Assembly: GCA_034722435.1 (NCBI GenBank)
Contig: JAYENX010000001.1
Span: 1 to 23,017 of the forward strand
DNA: 23,017 bases
Direction: 5' to 3'
Source of the DNA: Nanobdellota archaeon
GTDB taxonomy: Archaea > Nanobdellota > Nanobdellia > Woesearchaeales > JAHWHD01
The notes under the pieces were generated by a model. The model was not told the origin of the DNA, made no database searches, and saw only the letters and a program-made list of their open reading frames with translations. Numbering within the stretch: the first letter of the stretch is position 1; each line of letters begins with the position of its first letter. Below, piece by piece: positions 1,334 through 11,016 of the stretch. The position numbers and the translations under genes are program-made.

Positions 1334-2337
1334 TAATTGAACTTAACCAAGAAAGTGAAGAATGGAATACATTTCTGAAAAATAATAACCACAGAATATA
1401 TCACACCCCTAAATTTAAAACATTCATAGAAGACACATTTAGACTAAGACCAAAATATATTGCATATAAAGAAGATAATATCATCAGAACCATTCTACCA
1501 CTTACTCCTGTACACAGTAAAATATTTGGAAATCGCCTTATTTCAGTAGCAATGCTTGAATATGGCGGATTCGCTGGAGATGAATCTCACACTAACAAAA
1601 TAATTGATTACATTAAAGAAAGATATAAACAAAAATACGATTACGCAGAAATAAGACAAGGTCTTGATAAATTTAACAATTTAAATCTAGAAAATAAAAG
1701 ACAAAAAAGATTTATCCTCCATTTAAATACTTCAGAAGAACTCTGGAAAAATATCCAAAAAGAAAAAAGAAAAGCTATCAAAAAGTCTAAAAAAAATCTT
1801 TTTACACGAGAATTAACAATTAAAGATATTAATAAAATCTATAAATTATATCTTAATAACATGAGAAAATTTGGAACCCCTCCAAGTCCTAAAAAATTCT
1901 TTATAAATTTTTTCAAACTCAATTTAGGAAAATGCTTCGGATCATTTTTAGATGGAAAATTAACAGCCTTTCTATTAGGATACACTTACAAAGATCGAAT
2001 CCATGTAATAATAGCAAATGCTTATTCAAAATATCTTAAATATCGCTCTAATGACGCAGTACATTGGGCATTCATCGAATGGGGATGTCATAATAATTTT
2101 CAAATTTTTGATTTCGGAATAGTCAGAGAAAACTCAGGACATTTTGAATATAAAAGAAAATGGGGTGCTGAACTTAAAGATCTTAACAGACACATAATAT
2201 ATTTAAAAAAAGACAAAATAAAAGATCCCAATCCTGAAGATCCAAAACTACAAACAATCCTAAAAATATATAGAAAATTACCGGTAAACTTAACAATTAT
2301 CGCAGGAAAAATATTCAGAAAAGGCCTCGGAATTTAA
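1330..2337 (+). CDS. FemAB-like GNAT-fold acyl/aminoacyl transferase (type associated with exosortase/PEP-CTERM glycan loci)
   Basis: IYHTP, EYGG, RKAIKKSKK, NMRKFGTP, NDAVHWAFIEWGC, FDFG and HFEYKRKWG match the FemAB-like double-GNAT pattern. ATGA overlap with the pta stop. Confidence 0.8.
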   Translation: MIIELNQESEEWNTFLKNNNHRIYHTPKFKTFIEDTFRLRPKYIAYKEDNIIRTILPLTPVHSKIFGNRLISVAMLEYGGFAGDESHTNKIIDYIKERYKQKYDYAEIRQGLDKFNNLNLENKRQKRFILHLNTSEELWKNIQKEKRKAIKKSKKNLFTRELTIKDINKIYKLYLNNMRKFGTPPSPKKFFINFFKLNLGKCFGSFLDGKLTAFLLGYTYKDRIHVIIANAYSKYLKYRSNDAVHWAFIEWGCHNNFQIFDFGIVRENSGHFEYKRKWGAELKDLNRHIIYLKKDKIKDPNPEDPKLQTILKIYRKLPVNLTIIAGKIFRKGLGI

Positions 2338-3058
2338 CAAAATCCATACAGCTCACCCATTTACTGTTTGAATTCTCAAAAAATTCTCGCAAGATCTTCC
2401 AAGAATTCTTACCCAAGTTCCGTTTATAAAACATCTTTCTCCACATAGGCATACTTCCTAAATCCAGATTCATCTGAAGTTCACAAGGATGAAGATAAAA
2501 CATATAAGGTTCCTTAAACGATTTTGACCAAGGATAAAGAAATCTATAATAAAAAAAGCTTGTAGGCACCATTTTCCAAAAAAACTGATCAGCAGGTAAT
2601 TCAATTACATGTTTTTTATAAGGCTTAGTTTTTATCAAAGGATTAACGAAAAAAGGTGGATGCGATGAAGAAAACGAAGAATCATACGTATAACCATTAT
2701 TCTTTAAAGTTTGCATAAGCATTTTATGCGGTTTCATAAAAGGCGATCTAAAACCATTACATTTAAAACCCAATTTCTCAATTTGTTTTTTAGACTCCGC
2801 CACCTCAAAATTCAATCTTTTAATATCAACTCCATCCAACCTTGGATGAGTCTGCGAATGTGAACCTATCTCATGTTTCTCCCCAATTTCACGTATAAGA
2901 GTCTCATATTTATCAACTAATTCCCCAACAACAAAAAAAGTTGCCTTAACATCAAAATCATCGAAAAGATTCAACAATTTAGGAATTACTTCAGAAACAC
3001 TTTCACTTTTTTTAGAATCAAAATCATACTCTAAATCAACACTCATAACTCTATTCAT
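2315..3058 (-). CDS. Polysaccharide deacetylase (CE4/NodB, PuuE/PgdA-like)
   Basis: SVDLEYD, ATFFVVG, HEIGSHSQTH (HxxxH), GFRSP, FYLHP. Start moved from the TTG at 3073 to the ATG at 3058, which overlaps the upstream stop. Confidence 0.88.
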   Translation of the reverse strand: MNRVMSVDLEYDFDSKKSESVSEVIPKLLNLFDDFDVKATFFVVGELVDKYETLIREIGEKHEIGSHSQTHPRLDGVDIKRLNFEVAESKKQIEKLGFKCNGFRSPFMKPHKMLMQTLKNNGYTYDSSFSSSHPPFFVNPLIKTKPYKKHVIELPADQFFWKMVPTSFFYYRFLYPWSKSFKEPYMFYLHPCELQMNLDLGSMPMWRKMFYKRNLGKNSWKILREFFENSNSKWVSCMDFVKFRGLF

Positions 3059-3407
3059 TTTGTGACTCTTCAACTAATGGTTCAACATGCTTTAATGCAG
3101 AACTTTTTACAATATCAGCAAGCTTCATCTGTCCTTTACGAACTGTAAAATGTAAATAAAAAACTAGCACTGTCAAAAAAAGAATTGCTGCAATTGTTAA
3201 AAACCATAAAGGACCTTGTATAGCTAAAGATTGAAAAACAAATTTAACAGATTCAGGAAAAACAAGCACTAACACAAAACCAACCCACACTAATAACCAA
3301 ACTAAAAAATCAGAGATAGCAAACTCCTTTCTCTTAAAATGTAAATAAGTCAAAAAAAGCATACCTAATGCAAATATCACACCTACAACCTGTAATAACA
3401 TTACCAT
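3051..3407 (-). CDS. DUF2304-family small membrane protein (GT2 partner)
   Basis: 118 aa, three hydrophobic segments, WLLVW...VFPE, basic/polar C-tail, directly coupled to a DPM1-like GT2. Confidence 0.8.
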   Translation of the reverse strand: MVMLLQVVGVIFALGMLFLTYLHFKRKEFAISDFLVWLLVWVGFVLVLVFPESVKFVFQSLAIQGPLWFLTIAAILFLTVLVFYLHFTVRKGQMKLADIVKSSALKHVEPLVEESQNE

Positions 3408-4072
3408 CTTTTAACCTTCCACTTAAGCATATTTAAAAAGATTTTGATTCCATCAAACACGGTTGTACCTTTATAACTCTCAAGATATTTAGTTTCTATA
3501 GGCAACTCACCAATTTTTAAACCCTTCCTTGCAGCATTTGCCAACATCTCAGTCTCTACAGCATACCCTGAAGAATTCCATTTTAAATGTTCATACTTTC
3601 TACAATTAATTGCTCTATAACCATTTGAAAGATCACTAATATTAGTCCTAAACAAAACATTAAAAGCATTCACTAAAAATTTATTACCAAATCTAAATAC
3701 AAAAGGCATATTTTTATTAAATTGCCGTACACCGGTCACCAAATCAAAATCTTGCACATTAAGTTTCTCAACCAACTGAATTATATCTTTAGGATCATGT
3801 TGACCATCTGCATCAATAAATATTGCCACATCAGCTTTTCTTTTTATTGCAGCCTCCATTCCAGTATTCATAGCCAAACCTTTACCCATATTAACCATGT
3901 GCTTCAAAACAAAATCAGCACCCCCTCGCTTAGCATGCAACGAAGTTGCATCTTTAGAACCGTCATCTACAACTATTATTTCATCAACATAATGCTTTGT
4001 CCTTTGGACAACATCCATTATATTCTTCTCTTCATTAAATGCGGGAATTATAGCTGTAACTTTCATTTTCAT
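3401..4072 (-). CDS. Glycosyltransferase family 2, DPM1/polyprenol-phosphate glycosyltransferase-like, no C-terminal TM domain
   Basis: IIPAFNEE, VVDDGSKD, NMGKG, FIDADGQH (DxD), GYRA, YAVETEM; 223 aa. Confidence 0.92.
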   Translation of the reverse strand: MKMKVTAIIPAFNEEKNIMDVVQRTKHYVDEIIVVDDGSKDATSLHAKRGGADFVLKHMVNMGKGLAMNTGMEAAIKRKADVAIFIDADGQHDPKDIIQLVEKLNVQDFDLVTGVRQFNKNMPFVFRFGNKFLVNAFNVLFRTNISDLSNGYRAINCRKYEHLKWNSSGYAVETEMLANAARKGLKIGELPIETKYLESYKGTTVFDGIKIFLNMLKWKVKRW

Positions 4073-4078
4073 AAATAC

Positions 4079-5362
4079 TCATAGAGACTTATAGATAAAA
4101 CCTTTCTCAACTGCTTCTCTTTCATCAAAAAGAGATTTTAAATCAATAATAATAGGATTCGAACTCATTTTAGTTTTTAGATAATCAAGAGTTATTGTTT
4201 CAAATTGTTTATGTTTATTTACAAAAATCACACAATCAATATTTGAAACAGATTCAAGATTCACAGCATCAATACCAAAATCAGTTTTAATAGATTCAAT
4301 ATTAAGATTAGGCTCATAACCTATAACATTAACTTCTGATTTCTGAAGTTCCAATATAATATCTTTTGATTTTGAATTCCTAGAATCCCTAACATTTTCT
4401 TTAAAAGTCAAACCTAATAATAGAACTTTAGAATTTTTTAAAATTTTACCTGCCTCATTCAACCCTTTAATAACTAATTCAGCAACATGCTTAGACATAA
4501 AATCATTTGTAACTCTTCCTGCAAGTATGACCTTGGGATTAAACCCAAATTCCTCAGCTTTATAAGTTAAATAATAAGGATCAACACCAATACAATGTCC
4601 CCCTACCAACCCAGGAAAATAATTATGAAAATTCCATTTTGTACCTGCAGCTTCAAGAACATCTTTTGTTCTCAATCCTAACTTATCAAAAATTAAAGAT
4701 AATTCATTCATAAGAGCAATATTCAAATCTCTTTGTATATTTTCTATGACTTTCGCCGCTTCAGCAGTTCTTATAGTTTTTGCAGGAAAAACACCTGCAG
4801 TGGTTATTTTAGAATAAACATCAGATATTATCTTCAAAGAATCCTCATCAATACCACTTACAACTTTAACAATTTTATCTATTGTATGTTGTTTATCACC
4901 AGGATTAATTCTTTCCGGACTATAACCAATTTTAAAATCATTAGGACATTTTAACCCGGACTCTTTTTCAAGAATAGGCAAACAAATGTCCTCAGTCACA
5001 CCTGGATAAACAGTACTCTCAAAAACTACAATTGAATCTTTCTTAAAATTTTTACCAATCATCCTTGAAGCAGATTCAATATATTTTAAATCGGGCTTCT
5101 TATCTTCAGTAATAGGCGTAGGCACACAAACAACTATAAAATTAGCTTTTTTAATAAATTCAGAATCATAAGTAAAATCAATAATCGCATTTTTTAATTC
5201 TTCTTCAGATATCTCACAAGAATTATCTTTAAATTGTTTCAATTCAGATATACGTGTTTCATTCACATCAAAACCAATAACCTTGAAACCAGCATTGCTA
5301 AAAGCCACAGCTAAAGGTAAACCAACATATCCAAGTCCAACCACACATATAATTTCATCCAT
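4079..5362 (-). CDS. UDP-N-acetyl-hexosamine 6-dehydrogenase (WbpO/TviB type)
   Basis: VVGLGYVGLPLA, VCVPTP, ESTVYPG, YSPERINPGD, KVIENIQRDLNIA, TKWNF, PGLVGGHCIGVDPYYL. Start set at ATG 5362 (MDEII), overlapping the epimerase stop. Confidence 0.92.
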   Translation of the reverse strand: MDEIICVVGLGYVGLPLAVAFSNAGFKVIGFDVNETRISELKQFKDNSCEISEEELKNAIIDFTYDSEFIKKANFIVVCVPTPITEDKKPDLKYIESASRMIGKNFKKDSIVVFESTVYPGVTEDICLPILEKESGLKCPNDFKIGYSPERINPGDKQHTIDKIVKVVSGIDEDSLKIISDVYSKITTAGVFPAKTIRTAEAAKVIENIQRDLNIALMNELSLIFDKLGLRTKDVLEAAGTKWNFHNYFPGLVGGHCIGVDPYYLTYKAEEFGFNPKVILAGRVTNDFMSKHVAELVIKGLNEAGKILKNSKVLLLGLTFKENVRDSRNSKSKDIILELQKSEVNVIGYEPNLNIESIKTDFGIDAVNLESVSNIDCVIFVNKHKQFETITLDYLKTKMSSNPIIIDLKSLFDEREAVEKGFIYKSL

Positions 5363-6281
5363 ACCAATCAACTGTAACACTTAAACCAGAATTAAAATCA
5401 ACATGAGGTTCATAACCTATTAATTCTTTAGCTTTAGATATATCCGCCAAAGAATGTTTTACATCTCCAATTCTCTCTCCAAGGTATTCAGGTTCAAGTT
5501 TTGTTCCAAGAATTGAATTTAACATGTTAACTAAACTATTAAGATCAATCCTTTTATTACATGCTATATTCAATACTTGCCCATTTAATTGTCCAGATTG
5601 CATAGCAAGGATATTTGCATTAACAACATTCTTAACAAAAGTAAAATCTCTTGACTGTAAACCATCTCCAAAAATAATAGGCCTTTTACCTTGATTCATT
5701 AACTTAATAAATTTAGGTATTACAGCAGAATACTGAGAATCAGGATTTTGTCGTGGCCCAAAAACATTAAAATATCTTAAAGAAACTGTATCTAACCCAT
5801 AAACATCACTAAAAACTTTACAATAATATTCACCAACTAATTTAGTTATTGCATAAGGAGATAGAGGATTAGTAACCATAGATTCTTCTTTAGGCATTTT
5901 TTCAGAATCACCATATGCTGAAGAAGAAGCTGAATAAATTACTTTTTTAACTTTATTATCCCTTGCAGCTATCAACAAATTATGAGTACCAACAATATTA
6001 TTATTCAAAGATTCTAAAGGATTTTCAACAGATCTTTGAACAGAAGGAAGCGCAGCCAAATGAAACACAAAATCAACCCCTTTTAAAGTCGCTTGCAATA
6101 AATCAATATCCAAAATATTTCCTTCAATCAATTCAATCTTATCAAAAATATGTTTTATATTATCTTTTGTACCAGTTGAAAAATTATCAATAATAATTAC
6201 TTCATTATCCCGAGCCAAAAGTTCATCAACTAAATGACTACCTATAAAACCCGCCCCACCAGTTACTACACATTTAGCCAT
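5355..6281 (-). CDS. SDR NAD-dependent epimerase, UDP-GlcNAc 4-epimerase (WbpP/TviC)-like
   Basis: TGGAGFIGSH, FHLAA, SSSAYG, YAITK (YxxxK), LRYFNVFGPRQ, GDGLQSRDFT. Start set at ATG 6281 (MAKCVVTG), 23-30 nt below a TATA box. Confidence 0.92.
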   Translation of the reverse strand: MAKCVVTGGAGFIGSHLVDELLARDNEVIIIDNFSTGTKDNIKHIFDKIELIEGNILDIDLLQATLKGVDFVFHLAALPSVQRSVENPLESLNNNIVGTHNLLIAARDNKVKKVIYSASSSAYGDSEKMPKEESMVTNPLSPYAITKLVGEYYCKVFSDVYGLDTVSLRYFNVFGPRQNPDSQYSAVIPKFIKLMNQGKRPIIFGDGLQSRDFTFVKNVVNANILAMQSGQLNGQVLNIACNKRIDLNSLVNMLNSILGTKLEPEYLGERIGDVKHSLADISKAKELIGYEPHVDFNSGLSVTVDWYG

Positions 6282-6303
6282 ACTTATTTCAAAAATACTT
6301 TCA

Positions 6304-6311
6304 TTTATAAA
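6304..6311 (-). promoter_or_regulatory. TATA box for the epimerase unit
   Basis: TTTATAAA 23-30 nt upstream of ATG 6281. Confidence 0.65.
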
Positions 6312-6344
6312 TCTTATTAAACACAAACTAAACACATTTAAGAA

Positions 6345-7343
6345 CTATATAAACCAAATTAAACTAGCAAATACTACTTCTATCAAAATCATAAACCAAA
6401 CAATCTGCTTCTCAGTATACTTTCCAGTTCTAGTCAAAATATGAGGTATTGAATAAATTTTCCTATAAAAACTTTTTATTTTTCCATGCTCATATTTACC
6501 ATAAGTTTGCGCTTTAAACTTAGAACGTGCCTTTAACAAAAATTCAAGTATAAAAGGTATTGAAATTATCAATGCAGCTTTCTCAATATTCCCAACTACA
6601 GCTATACTCACAATAGCAGCCCCCAAAAGATAAGTTAAAGAATCCCCAGGTAAAACCTTCGCAGGAACTTTATTATAATAATAAAAAGCAATAAGCGCAC
6701 CAAGAACAGCAAACGCAATCACTGCAGCATCTGTTCTACCATTTACATAGGCGTAAAGACCAAGACTTAAAGTATAAACAATTCCCATACCAGTACCTAA
6801 ACCATTAAACCCCTCTAAAAGATTTACCATATTAGCAGCACCTATAACTCCAACCGGAACGAGCAGTAAAGGATATAAAAGTCCAAAATCAACAGAACCA
6901 ATAAAAGGAATAGTCAACGTAGAAAATCCAGCTTTAATTACCATTAAAGGAATTGCAGCAGGCAAAGTCAACAAAGGTTTCTGCCACCTTTTCAATCCAA
7001 CATATAGACCTTTTTTAGTTTCTCTGACCATCAAATCGTCTAAAAACCCAATTACAGCAACGATTAACATAGAACAAATTGACGCCAGTATGATTGCATT
7101 TGAAGAAATATCATCATAAATAAAAGTTCTAATAAAAATATAAATTAAAAGTGAAACAAATAAACCTATCATGACAAGCACTCCACCAGAAATAGGAACT
7201 GATGGCTGATGTTTCTTTGCCATATCTTTAACATCTAAACCAATTCTACTTAAGTACTTTATACCTTTCTTCAAAAGTAGAAATGTAACAACAAATCCAA
7301 CAATCAAAACAACAATAATTGCCCATAATGCCATAGATAACAT
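6345..7343 (-). CDS. UDP-GlcNAc:polyprenol-phosphate GlcNAc-1-phosphotransferase (GT4/MraY-like; archaeal AglH/eukaryotic GPT type)
   Basis: Multi-TM protein with GFLDDL, NMVNLLEGFNGL, KVLPGDS and LEFLLKARSKF. Confidence 0.88.
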   Translation of the reverse strand: MLSMALWAIIVVLIVGFVVTFLLLKKGIKYLSRIGLDVKDMAKKHQPSVPISGGVLVMIGLFVSLLIYIFIRTFIYDDISSNAIILASICSMLIVAVIGFLDDLMVRETKKGLYVGLKRWQKPLLTLPAAIPLMVIKAGFSTLTIPFIGSVDFGLLYPLLLVPVGVIGAANMVNLLEGFNGLGTGMGIVYTLSLGLYAYVNGRTDAAVIAFAVLGALIAFYYYNKVPAKVLPGDSLTYLLGAAIVSIAVVGNIEKAALIISIPFILEFLLKARSKFKAQTYGKYEHGKIKSFYRKIYSIPHILTRTGKYTEKQIVWFMILIEVVFASLIWFI

Positions 7344-7388: not shown

Positions 7389-8126
7389 TCAATCTTTAGA
7401 ACTATAAATTCTATCAGCCTCTTCCAAACCATCGAAATTACCAATATCAAACCACCTTTCTGTAAAACTAAAACCATATACTGAAGCTTTAGTTATTAGA
7501 TAAGTAAAAAAGCTTCCAGATTCTTTAAGACTATAACCTTCTTGTATATAGTTTTCATAATGCTGAATATCAGATTTTTTAATTAAATAACACATTGTAG
7601 CAGCTAAACTCGATTTAGGTTTCTCAGGTTTTTCTTCAAAATCAATAATCTTAGCACTATCATCTATTAACACGGTCCCAAATTTATTTGCAAGCTTCAT
7701 AGGATCTTTCAAATCATATAATGCAACCTTTGAATAATCAGGCTTAAAATCTATAAACTCTTTCAAATTAAATTCAAATAAATTATCTCCGGCAATAATT
7801 AAACAATCATCATCAACTTCAGCTTTTCTAAGAGCAAAATGTATATCACCAACAGCCCCTAAAGCATCTTTCACAGCTAATGTCCCATTATTAATTATAG
7901 TTACAGGAATTGAACAAGAAAACTGTTTCTTCCAATCCAAAAATCTTGGAGTATACTTATTATTTGTCGTAATAATAATTTCATCAACAACACCAGTCTC
8001 TTGAATTTTCTCAATAATGTGCTCAATTATAGGCTTACCCCCCACAACCAAAAGATGCTTAGGATAATTTTCAGTCAAAGGAAAAAGCCGCGTAGCATAA
8101 CCAGCACAAATAAGAAGAGCTTTCAT
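7389..8126 (-). CDS. Sugar-1-phosphate nucleotidyltransferase (NTP_transferase family, motifs intact)
   Basis: ICAGYATRLFPLTENYPKHLL, AGDNLF, FEEKP, WFDIG. ATGA overlap with ugd; SD-like GAGGT at 8136-8132. Confidence 0.9.
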   Translation of the reverse strand: MKALLICAGYATRLFPLTENYPKHLLVVGGKPIIEHIIEKIQETGVVDEIIITTNNKYTPRFLDWKKQFSCSIPVTIINNGTLAVKDALGAVGDIHFALRKAEVDDDCLIIAGDNLFEFNLKEFIDFKPDYSKVALYDLKDPMKLANKFGTVLIDDSAKIIDFEEKPEKPKSSLAATMCYLIKKSDIQHYENYIQEGYSLKESGSFFTYLITKASVYGFSFTERWFDIGNFDGLEEADRIYSSKD

Positions 8127-9421
8127 TGTAAACCTCTCCCAAATCCAGAATAATTAAATCCTAAACTAACCATCTCTTTAGGATCAAAAACATTCCGACC
8201 ATCAACAAGATTTGCTTCAGTCATAAAACTCTTCACTTTACCCATGTCAAGTTCTCGAAATGTATCCCATTCTGTACAAATAATCAGAGCATGAACATCT
8301 TTAGCAGCTTCATAAGGAGTCTTACAAAACTCAATCTCAGGAAATATTTTTCTAAAAGAATCTTTTGCAACAGGATCAAAAGCTTTAACATTCGCACCAA
8401 ATTTTAAAAGTTCATCCACTATATTCAATGAAGGCGCCTCCCTAATATCATCAGTTTTTGGTTTAAAAGCAAGTCCCCATACTGCCACTGTCTTACCTTT
8501 CAAATCAGGCAATATCTGTCGAAGTTTAGGAATGGCTTTCATCCTCTGTTTAGTATTTACATCATCAGCAGATTCTAATAATCTAAAATTAGCATTAAAA
8601 TTCTTACCCTGTTTAATCAAAGATCTAATATCTTTAGGAAAACAACTACCTCCATAACCCAATCCTGCTTGCAAAAATCTTGGACCTATTCTGGAATCAT
8701 AACCAATACCTTTTGCAACTGCTTTCACATCTGCCCCGGCAACTTCACAAAAAGTAGCAATTTCATTAATGAAAGAAATTTTCATAGCAAGAAATGCGTT
8801 TGATGCATATTTAATCAACTCAGCACTTTTATTATCAGTAAAAATAATAGGTTTACCGGTTCTTTCTAGAGATTTATAAACCCGAGTCATCAATTTTTTA
8901 GCATTCTCACTATCAGTACCAATAACTATTCGTTCAGGATTCAAAAAGTCTTTAATTGCTGCACCCTCTCTTAAAAATTCAGGATTAGAAACAACATCAA
9001 CAGCAATATTAGATACCTGATTAATTATCCTCTTAACCCTGTAAGCTGTACCAACTGGCACAGTACTCTTAATCACAACAACTTTGTAACTATCTATATT
9101 TTCACCTATAGCTTTAGCAGCAGAATCAATATATGTGAGATCCGCACTCCCGTCTTCAGATTGAGGAGTTCCAACCGCAATATATATTACATCAGAAGTT
9201 TTAACTATGGAAAAATCAGTTGTAAAAAACTGCCTTTCCCCTTCGACATTCTGCTTTAACATGTCTAACAATCCTAACTCATATATTGGAAGTTCAAGAT
9301 TGTTAAGTTTCTCTATCTTACTTTGATCTACATCAATGCATGTCACTTCATTTCCAAGACTTGCTAAACAAGTCCCCACTGTTAATCCAGCATATCCCGC
9401 ACCTAATATTGAAATTTTCAT
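8123..9421 (-). CDS. ugd: UDP-glucose 6-dehydrogenase
   Basis: ILGAGYAGL, IAVGTP, KSTVP, SNPEFLREG, AELIKYASNAFLA, GYGGSCFPKD, FKPKTDDIRE. Start set at ATG 9421 (MKISILG). Confidence 0.93.
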   Translation of the reverse strand: MKISILGAGYAGLTVGTCLASLGNEVTCIDVDQSKIEKLNNLELPIYELGLLDMLKQNVEGERQFFTTDFSIVKTSDVIYIAVGTPQSEDGSADLTYIDSAAKAIGENIDSYKVVVIKSTVPVGTAYRVKRIINQVSNIAVDVVSNPEFLREGAAIKDFLNPERIVIGTDSENAKKLMTRVYKSLERTGKPIIFTDNKSAELIKYASNAFLAMKISFINEIATFCEVAGADVKAVAKGIGYDSRIGPRFLQAGLGYGGSCFPKDIRSLIKQGKNFNANFRLLESADDVNTKQRMKAIPKLRQILPDLKGKTVAVWGLAFKPKTDDIREAPSLNIVDELLKFGANVKAFDPVAKDSFRKIFPEIEFCKTPYEAAKDVHALIICTEWDTFRELDMGKVKSFMTEANLVDGRNVFDPKEMVSLGFNYSGFGRGLQ

Positions 9422-9444
9422 TGTAATTAAAGTAAATTTAAAGT

Positions 9445-9496
9445 TATTTAAATATCTTACCTTCATCCTACTTCATCCCACCAAAAGGTTTAAATA
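9445..9496. promoter_or_regulatory. Divergent promoter pair (TTTAAATA at 9452-9445 on minus; CCAAAAGG-TTTAAATA at 9481-9496 on plus)
   Basis: TATA-like boxes 24-31 nt from ugd ATG 9421 and 26-33 nt from TTG 9522. Confidence 0.7.
9461..9478. repeat. Direct repeat CTTCATCC x2 with 10-bp period; candidate operator
   Basis: CTTCATCC at 9461-9468 and 9471-9478, lying between the two divergent TATA/BRE elements. Confidence 0.85.
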
Positions 9497-9521: not shown

Positions 9522-10316
9522 TTGAAGAAAAAAATAAGCATAACAATTGATGATAACACACTCCACGACGTAGATTCCATGATTGATGGTATATACATAA
9601 GAAACAGAAGTCAAGCCATAGAATATATGGTAAAAAACCAAATAGGAGAATCTAAAACTGCAGTAATTCTTGCAGGGGGTAAAGAAAAAATACAAAAAAT
9701 AGGATCAGAATACAGACCAACTATAAAAGTATCAGGAACACCAGTCATTGAAAGGGCCCTTAAAAAACTAAAAAAAAATGGTTACAAAGAAATATATGTA
9801 ATAGCAAGACATCACATCCTTACAAAAATATTTGAAATAATAAAAGAAGGTTCTATGTACGGCATGAAAGTACATTATGTTGAAGAAAAAGATGCAAAGG
9901 GTAGTGCAGATTCTTTAAAACTATTAAAAGGAAAAATAAAAAGCAATTTTTTAGTTGTATTCGCAGACATAATATTTGACAAAATAAATATTAACGAACT
10001 ATGGAAACAACACATAAAACAAAGCCCTGTAGCAACATTGATTTTAACCACATCAGGAACACCTTCAAAAAAAGGAATTGTTAAAATAGAAGGTTCAAAA
10101 ATTCTAGAATTCATACAAAAACCCAATAAAAGCGACGCCTATTTAGGATTCAGTTCAATGTTTATCGCGGGACCAGAAATATTTGAATATTCAGGTAAAA
10201 GTCTTGAAGAAGACATATTCCCAATTCTAGCAAAAAAAGGACTTCTACAAGGTCACCTTAGCTCAGAAAAAGAGACACATATACATACTAAAGCAGATTC
10301 TATGAAAAGTATTTAA
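9522..10316 (+). CDS. Ribbon-helix-helix (NikR/CopG-like) domain fused to a degenerate NTP_transferase domain
   Basis: N-terminus KKISITIDDNTLHDVDSMI...RNRSQAIEYMV is RHH-like. It is followed by AVILAGG, VVFADII and FIQKP, but with KEKIQK/RPT in place of GTRL/PK. TTG start. Confidence 0.85.
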   Translation: MKKKISITIDDNTLHDVDSMIDGIYIRNRSQAIEYMVKNQIGESKTAVILAGGKEKIQKIGSEYRPTIKVSGTPVIERALKKLKKNGYKEIYVIARHHILTKIFEIIKEGSMYGMKVHYVEEKDAKGSADSLKLLKGKIKSNFLVVFADIIFDKININELWKQHIKQSPVATLILTTSGTPSKKGIVKIEGSKILEFIQKPNKSDAYLGFSSMFIAGPEIFEYSGKSLEEDIFPILAKKGLLQGHLSSEKETHIHTKADSMKSI

Positions 10317-10339: not shown

Positions 10340-10361
10340 TGACCATTTAATCCTCTATCAC

Positions 10362-10471
10362 GGACGGCCATAGGGACTTGGCTCACCCGTTCCCATTCGA
10401 ACACGGAAGTTAAGAAAGTCTCCGTTCTGGTCGGTACTACGTTTTTGCGTGGGAAAATCGGAAAGCTGTCC
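10362..10471 (+). rRNA. rrf: 5S ribosomal RNA, stand-alone and short (about 110 nt)
   Basis: Helix I GGACGGC/GCTGTCC; CATAG; helix II GGGACTT/AAGTC(T)CC; ACCCGTTCCCATTCGAACACGGAAGTTAAG; loop E GGTA/GAA. GC-rich island in an AT-rich region. Ends are approximate. Confidence 0.95.
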
Positions 10472-10472
10472 A

Positions 10473-10497
10473 CCTTTTCTTTTAAATTTTAATTTTC
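10473..10497 (+). terminator. Oligo-T terminator region after 5S
   Basis: CCTTTTCTTTTAAATTTTAATTTT immediately after helix I. Confidence 0.55.
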
Positions 10498-11016
10498 CTA
10501 CAAGATCTTAATTATACCAAGAATAGCATCTTTCTTATTATTAGAATTCTTGAAAACAAAACCATCTTTTTTTACATCAGTTCTACCTTCATAACTATGT
10601 AAAACTCTTTTCAACTTAGATCTATCATAAATTATAACTATATCAAGCCGCACAGGTTTATTACCAAATTTAGGCGGCCAAGTATAAAATGGTTCAATAA
10701 AATTCTCAATTATCTTAGTCTTAGATTTCACCACAAAATCAAGAGCAAAAATATCAATCTTCTTACCTTCAACATTTTCATATCTGTCATCACACCTTTT
10801 TAAGTCATATCTATCGTGACCGATTTTTTTTATAACCTTAATCAAATCACCAACCTTTTTCTTGGAATGTTCTTGAGAACCCAAACATCTAATAACAACT
10901 TTCTTTCCAAAAAAATACTTCTTAATCAATAAATCAACTTTAGCACCTATAGTAACCCAATCAGGTTTTGATTTAACAGAATATTCAGGAATTGTTACTT
11001 GATAAACCTTAATCAT
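10498..11016 (-). CDS. Hypothetical protein, 172 aa, unrecognised family
   Basis: ATGA overlap with the NOP2 stop and GGTGA SD 7 nt upstream support a real gene; no motif recognised. Confidence 0.8.
   Translation of the reverse strand: MIKVYQVTIPEYSVKSKPDWVTIGAKVDLLIKKYFFGKKVVIRCLGSQEHSKKKVGDLIKVIKKIGHDRYDLKRCDDRYENVEGKKIDIFALDFVVKSKTKIIENFIEPFYTWPPKFGNKPVRLDIVIIYDRSKLKRVLHSYEGRTDVKKDGFVFKNSNNKKDAILGIIKIL

Follow-up and report, generated by a model that had tools for sequence, protein, structure and literature searches.

A candidate nucleotide-sugar-responsive transcription factor combining a ribbon-helix-helix domain with a remodeled nucleotidyltransferase fold in DPANN archaea

A predicted one-component regulator of the ugd glycan operon

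The stretch of DNA analyzed here (the window, 23,017 nucleotides in length) contains a gene in which a ribbon-helix-helix (RHH) domain is fused to a domain with the NTP_transferase fold of sugar-1-phosphate nucleotidyltransferases (NTases). From sequence comparison we consider it probable (at roughly 0.6) that its product is a local, autoregulated and probably repressing one-component transcription factor that acts on the ugd glycan operon, and that a pseudo-enzyme domain in it senses a nucleotide-sugar. The original prediction had proposed a regulator of this kind, and the proposal is supported by the divergent synteny with ugd, by a near-invariant repeat element that is tied to the gene, and by the invariance of those residues of the RHH domain that are predicted to contact bases.

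The gene and its start codon

The fusion gene occupies positions 9522 to 10316 of the forward strand, stop codon included, encodes 264 residues and starts with TTG. Homologues that start with ATG open with the same MKKKISITI N-terminus; this conservation (KKKISITID...) identifies the TTG at 9522 as the correct start. The open reading frame is a real gene, as had been assumed. The public gene call, P0002, is 100% identical but comprises 245 residues and begins at an internal methionine; it is without the first 19 residues (window 9522-9584), and because the real start codon is TTG it thereby loses the RHH strand expected to contact DNA. The host is a DPANN archaeon of the Woesearchaeota group (assembly of 1.3 Mb in 60 contigs, 94.5% complete, 33% GC), in whose genome the fusion gene is single-copy.

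Divergent orientation with the ugd operon

The fusion gene lies head-to-head with ugd (8123-9421, reverse strand), which encodes a UDP-glucose 6-dehydrogenase (TuaD/AglM-like) and is the first gene of the predicted target operon; the divergent arrangement on which the original prediction was built is thus present, with a spacer of 100 nt, given a ugd start at 9421 (M16 of the longest open reading frame). The ATG at 9421 is most likely the start of ugd. The longest open reading frame (8123-9466, reverse strand), starting at 9466, would overlap the operator described below; this start was rejected because homologues align from residue 15-16 on and because a TATA box precedes the ATG at 9421 by 25 nt.

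Eight closely packed minus-strand genes are headed by ugd. Its stop codon is overlapped by the gene of a canonical, AglF-like sugar-1-phosphate nucleotidyltransferase with an intact TRL..PK loop (7389-8126, reverse strand), so named in what follows as the in-window paralogue. The remaining six, tightly packed and on the same strand (2315-7343), encode a GT4/MraY-WecA-like protein, a TviC-like epimerase, a TviB-like dehydrogenase, a GT2 protein, a DUF2304 protein and a deacetylase, and probably belong to the same operon; the TviC-like gene is of the UDP-GlcNAcA epimerase type, and the GT4 protein is a phosphosugar transferase.

Homologues had been expected to share the link to ugd, and a survey of their loci bears this out: where at least 1.5 kb of upstream sequence is available, ugd is divergent and less than 500 nt away in 64 of 73 loci. 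The genes after ugd in related loci are, as a rule, those of a canonical nucleotidyltransferase and of an SDR epimerase or decarboxylase. Six loci (L009, L027, L034, L043, L048 and L049) carry a gene of about 300 residues between the regulator and a ugd-family gene of more divergent sequence (39-40% identical); the operator is still located about 60 nt before the regulator start in these six.

A repeat element between the two promoters

Alignment of the spacers reveals an element of 35 nt, which reads TTTAAATA, then ATCTTAC, ATCCTAC and ATC(C/M)(T/G)A(C/T); it is thus composed of a TATA box and three ATC(C/T)TAC boxes, with starts 11 and 10 bp apart. In the window, the TATA box that serves ugd (TTTAAATA; 9447-9454, reverse strand) is 25 nt from the ATG at 9421. 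The putative operator (9454-9481) consists of the direct repeats ATCTTAC (9454-9460), ATCCTAC (9465-9471) and ATCCCAC (9475-9481), and is followed by a second TATA box (TTTAAATA; 9489-9496, forward strand), 25 nt before the TTG of the fusion gene at 9522. With TATA boxes this close to the start codons, the mRNAs of ugd and of the regulator are predicted to be leaderless or nearly so.

The element is tied to the fusion gene. Of 81 non-redundant loci, 78 have one copy upstream of it, in fixed orientation (among the three loci without it, one has only 8 nt of upstream sequence). The 78 include 8 loci in which ugd is no neighbor of the fusion gene, and the element stays beside ugd where an insert separates ugd from the regulator gene. 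In one locus (L080), ugd, two further open reading frames and the RHH-NTase gene are co-directional, and here ugd and the regulator each have their own copy of repeats and TATA box (2070-2130 and 4940-5000), in the ugd-type orientation. That the element follows both genes fits an operator common to an autoregulated factor and its target, yet the element could be bound by another protein. Its mean pairwise identity is 87%; in the same loci, the RHH codons reach 66%, third codon positions 39% and the adjacent spacer 36%. In the 1.3-Mb genome of the host the element is unique (9447-9481; PWM score of 36 bits at 9455), the runner-up site scoring 11 bits. Scans of the whole genome with relaxed two-box and three-box PWMs for a wider regulon returned no second convincing site; a regulon of several operons is therefore unsupported in this genome.

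About ten species have GC-rich, hairpin-rich inserts of 140-420 nt between operator and regulator (L003, L008, L010, L019, L020, L023, L044, L047, L062 and L063). These inserts align poorly with one another, and Rfam gave nearby 5S rRNA genes alone; they could be MITE-like insertions or a new RNA.

Repression and activation

The boxes occur in two promoter settings. In about 45 loci, the window included, they are sandwiched between two TATA boxes; in about 22, there is a single, shared TATA box and the boxes are located 1-19 nt before the regulator start codon, which is the geometry of autorepression as far as the predicted promoter layout goes. On the side of ugd, box 1 shares its first base with the end of the TATA box and extends over the 6-7 bp where the BRE is expected. 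Repression of both promoters is favored by this position of box 1, and by the boxes of the single-TATA loci, which cover the initiation region of the regulator. In the mechanism that we propose, RHH dimers, joined through their NTase-fold domains, would probably occupy the three phased ATC(C/T)TAC boxes; since these are placed between divergent TATA boxes and over the BRE position of ugd, their occupancy would most likely block TFB or RNA polymerase, and so repress the regulator's own gene along with the glycan-precursor operon headed by ugd.

For ugd, we judge repression to be about twice as probable as activation. The opposite possibility, which we hold to be unlikely yet worth weighing, is a regulator that activates ugd by recruiting TFB/TBP from upstream of the BRE and TATA box, and that represses its own gene where the boxes are downstream of the TATA box. 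The boxes are indeed upstream of the TATA boxes in the window and in L080, a position also typical of archaeal activators, and position-dependent dual regulators exist among archaea in SurR and TrmBL1. However, the overlap of box 1 with the TATA box and the expected BRE argues against recruitment, the TATA box of ugd already is a perfect consensus, and RHH proteins are mostly repressors. We therefore retain repression of ugd as the preferred reading.

A conserved but remodeled nucleotidyltransferase pocket

Residues 46-264 (9657-10313, forward strand) form a domain of the NTP_transferase fold with a remodeled active site, as judged from PF00483, from AlphaFold2 and Foldseek, and from alignments. 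PF00483 matches residues 47-229 with 67.8 bits, against a gathering cut-off of 21.2. The AlphaFold2 model, computed with 24 homologues, has a mean pLDDT of 80, with values of 85-95 over most of the enzyme domain and a dip around residues 181-210; its top matches in Foldseek are GMPPB/GMPPA, plant VTC1, RmlA and MurU, with E-values down to 6e-18 and a TM-score of 0.72. The fold assigned originally to this part of the protein, for which profile and structure prediction had been proposed as a check, is thus recovered by both.

Active-site positions were assigned by aligning the protein with both B. anthracis RmlA and the in-window paralogue, and residue counts were taken over 119 close homologues. 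The loop (AGGKEKIQKIGSEYRPT) is as originally described: the degenerate G-loop (residues 50-69, LAGGKEKIQKIGSEYRPTIK; 9669-9728, forward strand) reads GGKEKIQK, a GGxE pattern, unlike the G-x-G-T-R of the enzymes. Its phosphate-loop glycines (G52 and G53) are kept in 119 of 119 homologues each; the second glycine of the loop is Glu55 (108/119); the position of the catalytic arginine, 57, is a mixture of H, R, K, N and S and is not conserved; position 59 is K or R (108/119); and the lysine of PK(P/H)L is Arg65 (115/119), a conservative change. Further into the domain, the base-binding G-T/S-A motif (G127; 118/119) and the aspartate of GD (D149; 117/119) are kept, EKP has become Q199-K200-P201 (Q199 in 119, K200 in 118 of 119), and the place of NxG is taken by F210-S211 (119/119). 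Finally, W-x-D-x-G has become E251-x-H253-x-H255, with both histidines in 119 of 119. It falls within a subfamily-invariant GHLSSEKExHIH block (residues 245-255; 10254-10286, forward strand), in which H253 stands for the Mg-binding aspartate and H255 for the glycine of DxG; the replacement of the DIG motif that had been pointed out is thus one by HIH.

The original claims about this site hold in part. The conserved arginine and lysine were said to be gone: the arginine is lost, its position being mixed across the 119 homologues, but the lysine is replaced by a conserved arginine (R65), so that its loss was wrongly claimed. The protein was also called a dead enzyme, which the loss of motifs supports (G55 to E, the catalytic arginine, the Mg-binding aspartate to histidine, EKP to QKP); several motifs for ligand contact (GG, G-T/S-A, GD and K200) are retained. 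Read from the alignment, the pocket is strictly conserved and remodeled, not decaying: it has lost the residues for triphosphate chemistry and Mg binding, and retained those that hold the nucleoside and the sugar-phosphate. Given the loss of the arginine, the loop glycine and the Mg-binding aspartate, and the retention of the nucleoside- and sugar-phosphate-binding elements, the C-terminal domain would most likely sense a nucleotide-sugar and be non-catalytic. Judged by the pathway, the ligand could be UDP-Glc, UDP-GlcA or a downstream UDP-sugar, and ligand occupancy may be coupled to oligomerization and DNA affinity, by analogy to GMPPA for GDP-mannose and to NikR for Ni.

The fold might instead contribute nothing more than a scaffold for oligomerization, placing three RHH dimers on the boxes of a regulator that acts independently of any ligand. 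NTases of the RmlA/GMPPB fold are dimers or tetramers, and three phased boxes demand a higher-order assembly; but the residues of the former active site are the most conserved ones of the domain (Q199, K200, H253, H255, D149 and G127, at 117-119 of 119), and so strict a retention of pocket residues is hard to expect of a mere scaffold, which makes this explanation rather improbable in comparison to a ligand sensor.

Distribution and history of the family

A protein search returned 655 relatives, the best 120 of which are nearly all about 265 residues long and 54-84% identical. The gene was found in 172 GTDB species genomes (one genome per species), nearly all labeled Woesearchaeota or Nanoarchaeota. 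Among 301 sampled genomes of the phylum, a tally that includes one unpublished genome (G244), 144 have a member of the family and about 40 a close orthologue (E<1e-100); many have 2-4 paralogues. With a profile as query, 133 clusters were retrieved at E<1e-30 from 1.8 billion representative proteins, nearly all of them full-length fusions of 240-290 residues. Named members occur in Diapherotrites, Micrarchaeota and Nanoarchaeia, where their annotation reads nucleotidyltransferase or AglF; it had been suspected from the outset that such fusions were filed in databases under this name.

The association with nucleotide-sugar genes and with phased boxes reaches beyond the close orthologues. Of four distant fusion loci in DPANN archaea (27-35% identity), three are located among nucleotide-sugar genes (PGM/PMM, NTases, epimerases, DegT). 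ATCATAC-type boxes, spaced by 10 bp, are found just upstream in three of the four; in the fourth, the boxes read TATTAC and have a spacing of 10-11 bp. The two-box pattern is present at two of the four loci; the entire host genome, both strands considered, has just two occurrences.

The canonical GxGxR loop is kept in 10 of 132 distant clusters (about 8%), the majority of which also have PK and EKP, and some DxG, so that some fusions may be active enzymes. In a FastTree phylogeny rooted on unfused NTases, with a modest deep support of 80-92, the clusters with a canonical loop sit in basal groups; the clade of the window falls inside a crown group, and this loop is found in none of its 85 sampled clusters. 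The tree suggests that the canonical loop is ancestral and that the fused ancestor was active, an ancestry made plausible by these rare canonical-motif fusions near the root.

Could the regulator, then, still be a bifunctional trigger enzyme, that is, an active NTase that works through R65, K/R59, D149, H253/H255 and a metal, and is autoregulated by its RHH domain in the manner of PutA and BirA, which remain active enzymes? The rare fusions with GxGxR..PK..EKP..DxG near the root of the tree speak for it, as does a pocket that is invariant rather than decaying and has retained GG, G-T/S-A, GD and K200; with R65, D149 and K/R59 in place as well, an unusual catalytic mechanism is possible. However, the glutamate in place of the second loop glycine and the unconserved position of the catalytic arginine run counter to activity, as do the exchanges of the Mg-binding aspartate for histidine and of the sugar-binding glutamate for glutamine in 119 of 119 homologues; the target operon already encodes a canonical NTase; and the sampled clusters of the crown group to which the window clade belongs are devoid of canonical loops. 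We consider an active enzyme distinctly unlikely here, and continue with a non-catalytic sensor as the preferred reading.

The N-terminal ribbon-helix-helix domain

The RHH domain comprises residues 1-45 (9522-9656, forward strand), with a strand KKISITI that presents K4, S6 and T8, and with NRSQAIE at the start of a helix. Taken alone, the window protein matches RHH_1 (PF01402) with 12.8 bits, below the Pfam threshold of 20.5 (E 0.12), and NikR models match it, with their N-terminus, at an E-value of about 1e-3, over residues 3-46 only. Among 32 diverse full-length homologues, 17 match RHH_1 with an E-value of 0.01 or below, down to 2.6e-9. Compared to the PDB, a profile of the N-terminal part from 24 species retrieves the RHH antitoxin Rv0298 as its best match (3e-4), followed by the NikR proteins of P. 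horikoshii (9e-4) and E. coli (0.035). Across these 24 species K2, K4, S6 and T8 are invariant; in E. coli NikR, the latter three correspond to R3, T5 and T7, which we take to be its base-contacting strand residues.

In the AlphaFold2 model of the monomer, the KKISITI segment is followed by helices at residues 11-21 and 29-39. The pLDDT of this part is low (44-53), as expected for an obligate dimer that was folded as a monomer, and the predicted strand and two helices are accordingly of low confidence. The assignment of the first approximately 40 residues to an RHH domain, made originally from a motif, is thus backed by the matches of the homologues to RHH_1, by the profile matches to NikR and Rv0298, and by the predicted helices. 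The notion that the N-terminus is no DNA-binding RHH domain at all, rather a protein-interaction or antitoxin-like tail, with some other factor bound to the repeat element, can draw on the sub-threshold RHH_1 match of the window protein and on an antitoxin as best PDB match, but is very improbable, since that antitoxin is itself an RHH protein, the NikR matches span the strand and both helices, over half of the homologues pass RHH_1, the element accompanies the fusion gene even without ugd, and a toxin partner gene is absent at the locus.

Relation to known regulators and pseudo-enzymes

In its overall plan, the predicted regulator resembles NikR: both have an N-terminal RHH domain in which the NRS(E/Q)AI motif is shared and the base-contacting residues of the strand align, both would use a C-terminal domain for ligand binding and oligomerization, and both act, here by prediction, as local regulators on an operator in the core promoter. 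Unlike NikR, whose C-terminal domain is an ACT-like tetramerization and metal-binding domain, the protein has an NTP_transferase fold at its C-terminus; its putative operator consists of three direct repeats, where that of NikR is a palindrome of two half-sites; and its ligand is presumably a nucleotide-sugar instead of Ni.

One-component regulators derived from enzymes are known in B. subtilis PurR (PRT fold), in the ROK repressors Mlc and NagC, and in PutA and BirA. As in these, the fold of a metabolic enzyme would here be combined with a DNA-binding domain to report on a metabolite of the pathway, and PutA also uses an RHH domain for this purpose; to our knowledge, none of them uses the fold of a sugar-1-phosphate nucleotidyltransferase. 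A regulatory role for a degenerate NTase has its parallel in GalF, a paralogue of UDP-glucose pyrophosphorylase that is GalU-like and without catalytic residues; GalF works at the level of proteins and, unlike the fusion, is devoid of a DNA-binding domain. Among the matches of the in-window paralogue is the NCBIfam model 'GalU regulator GalF'.

The closest precedent for the proposed sensor is GMPPA, described as a non-catalytic NTase paralogue that binds GDP-mannose and exerts feedback control on GMPPB (PMC11228364); an NTase fold can thus serve as a sensor of the product. GMPPA has the same fold as the C-terminal domain, GMPPA and GMPPB chains being among its top Foldseek matches, but it also has a β-helix and acts on GMPPB by protein contact, whereas the regulator is without a β-helix and its predicted output is on DNA.

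No description of an RHH-nucleotidyltransferase regulator was found in the full-text open-access literature, PMC6393860 included. The RHH literature retrieved within the same scope deals with toxin-antitoxin, CdrS/CdrL or viral systems, none with an NTase fusion. The logic of the regulator is already known from NikR, PutA, PurR and the ROK repressors; its RHH-NTase architecture appears to be new.

Taking these considerations further, we tentatively propose, as a broader reading that we would not yet rank as probable, that RHH-NTase fusions form a large, DPANN-specific family of nucleotide-sugar-responsive transcription factors, the first such family in Archaea. Bifunctional enzyme-repressors, represented by the rare members with canonical motifs, would have been converted stepwise to pure sensors, and paralogous subfamilies would each have their own phased-repeat operator. 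D149, H253 and H255, in the former Mg site, could constitute a new metal or ligand center that reads UDP-uronate and thereby sets the supply of surface glycans in these symbionts.

Very little is known about how DPANN archaea regulate transcription, and all of these organisms are difficult to grow. Here, a predicted regulator and a predicted operator come with a clear target, the supply of UDP-glucuronate and downstream precursors of surface glycans, and the system is tractable, being composed of a single gene and a single site, with an operator that is near-invariant in more than 70 species; recombinant protein, a 60-bp probe and commercial UDP-sugars would suffice for testing the whole hypothesis in vitro. 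If it is correct, the nucleotidyltransferase fold would join those enzyme folds that have been recruited as sensor domains of transcription factors, and the regulator would provide a prokaryotic, DNA-binding counterpart to the pseudo-enzyme feedback sensors of the GMPPA type. The public annotation of these proteins as nucleotidyltransferases probably overstates the capacity of these reduced genomes for sugar activation.

Genes downstream of the regulator

Directly downstream of the regulator gene is a stand-alone 5S rRNA gene (10360-10474, forward strand). At least eight related loci (L008, L010, L019, L020, L023, L044, L062 and L063) likewise have a 5S gene 0.1-1.8 kb downstream of the orthologue, so that the linkage of the two is conserved. 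Next to it, on the reverse strand, an open reading frame of 172 residues (10498-11016) has no match in Pfam and is translationally coupled to a NOP2/Sun methyltransferase gene and a half-length NFACT gene; NFACT is a conserved downstream neighbor of the regulator in many related loci.
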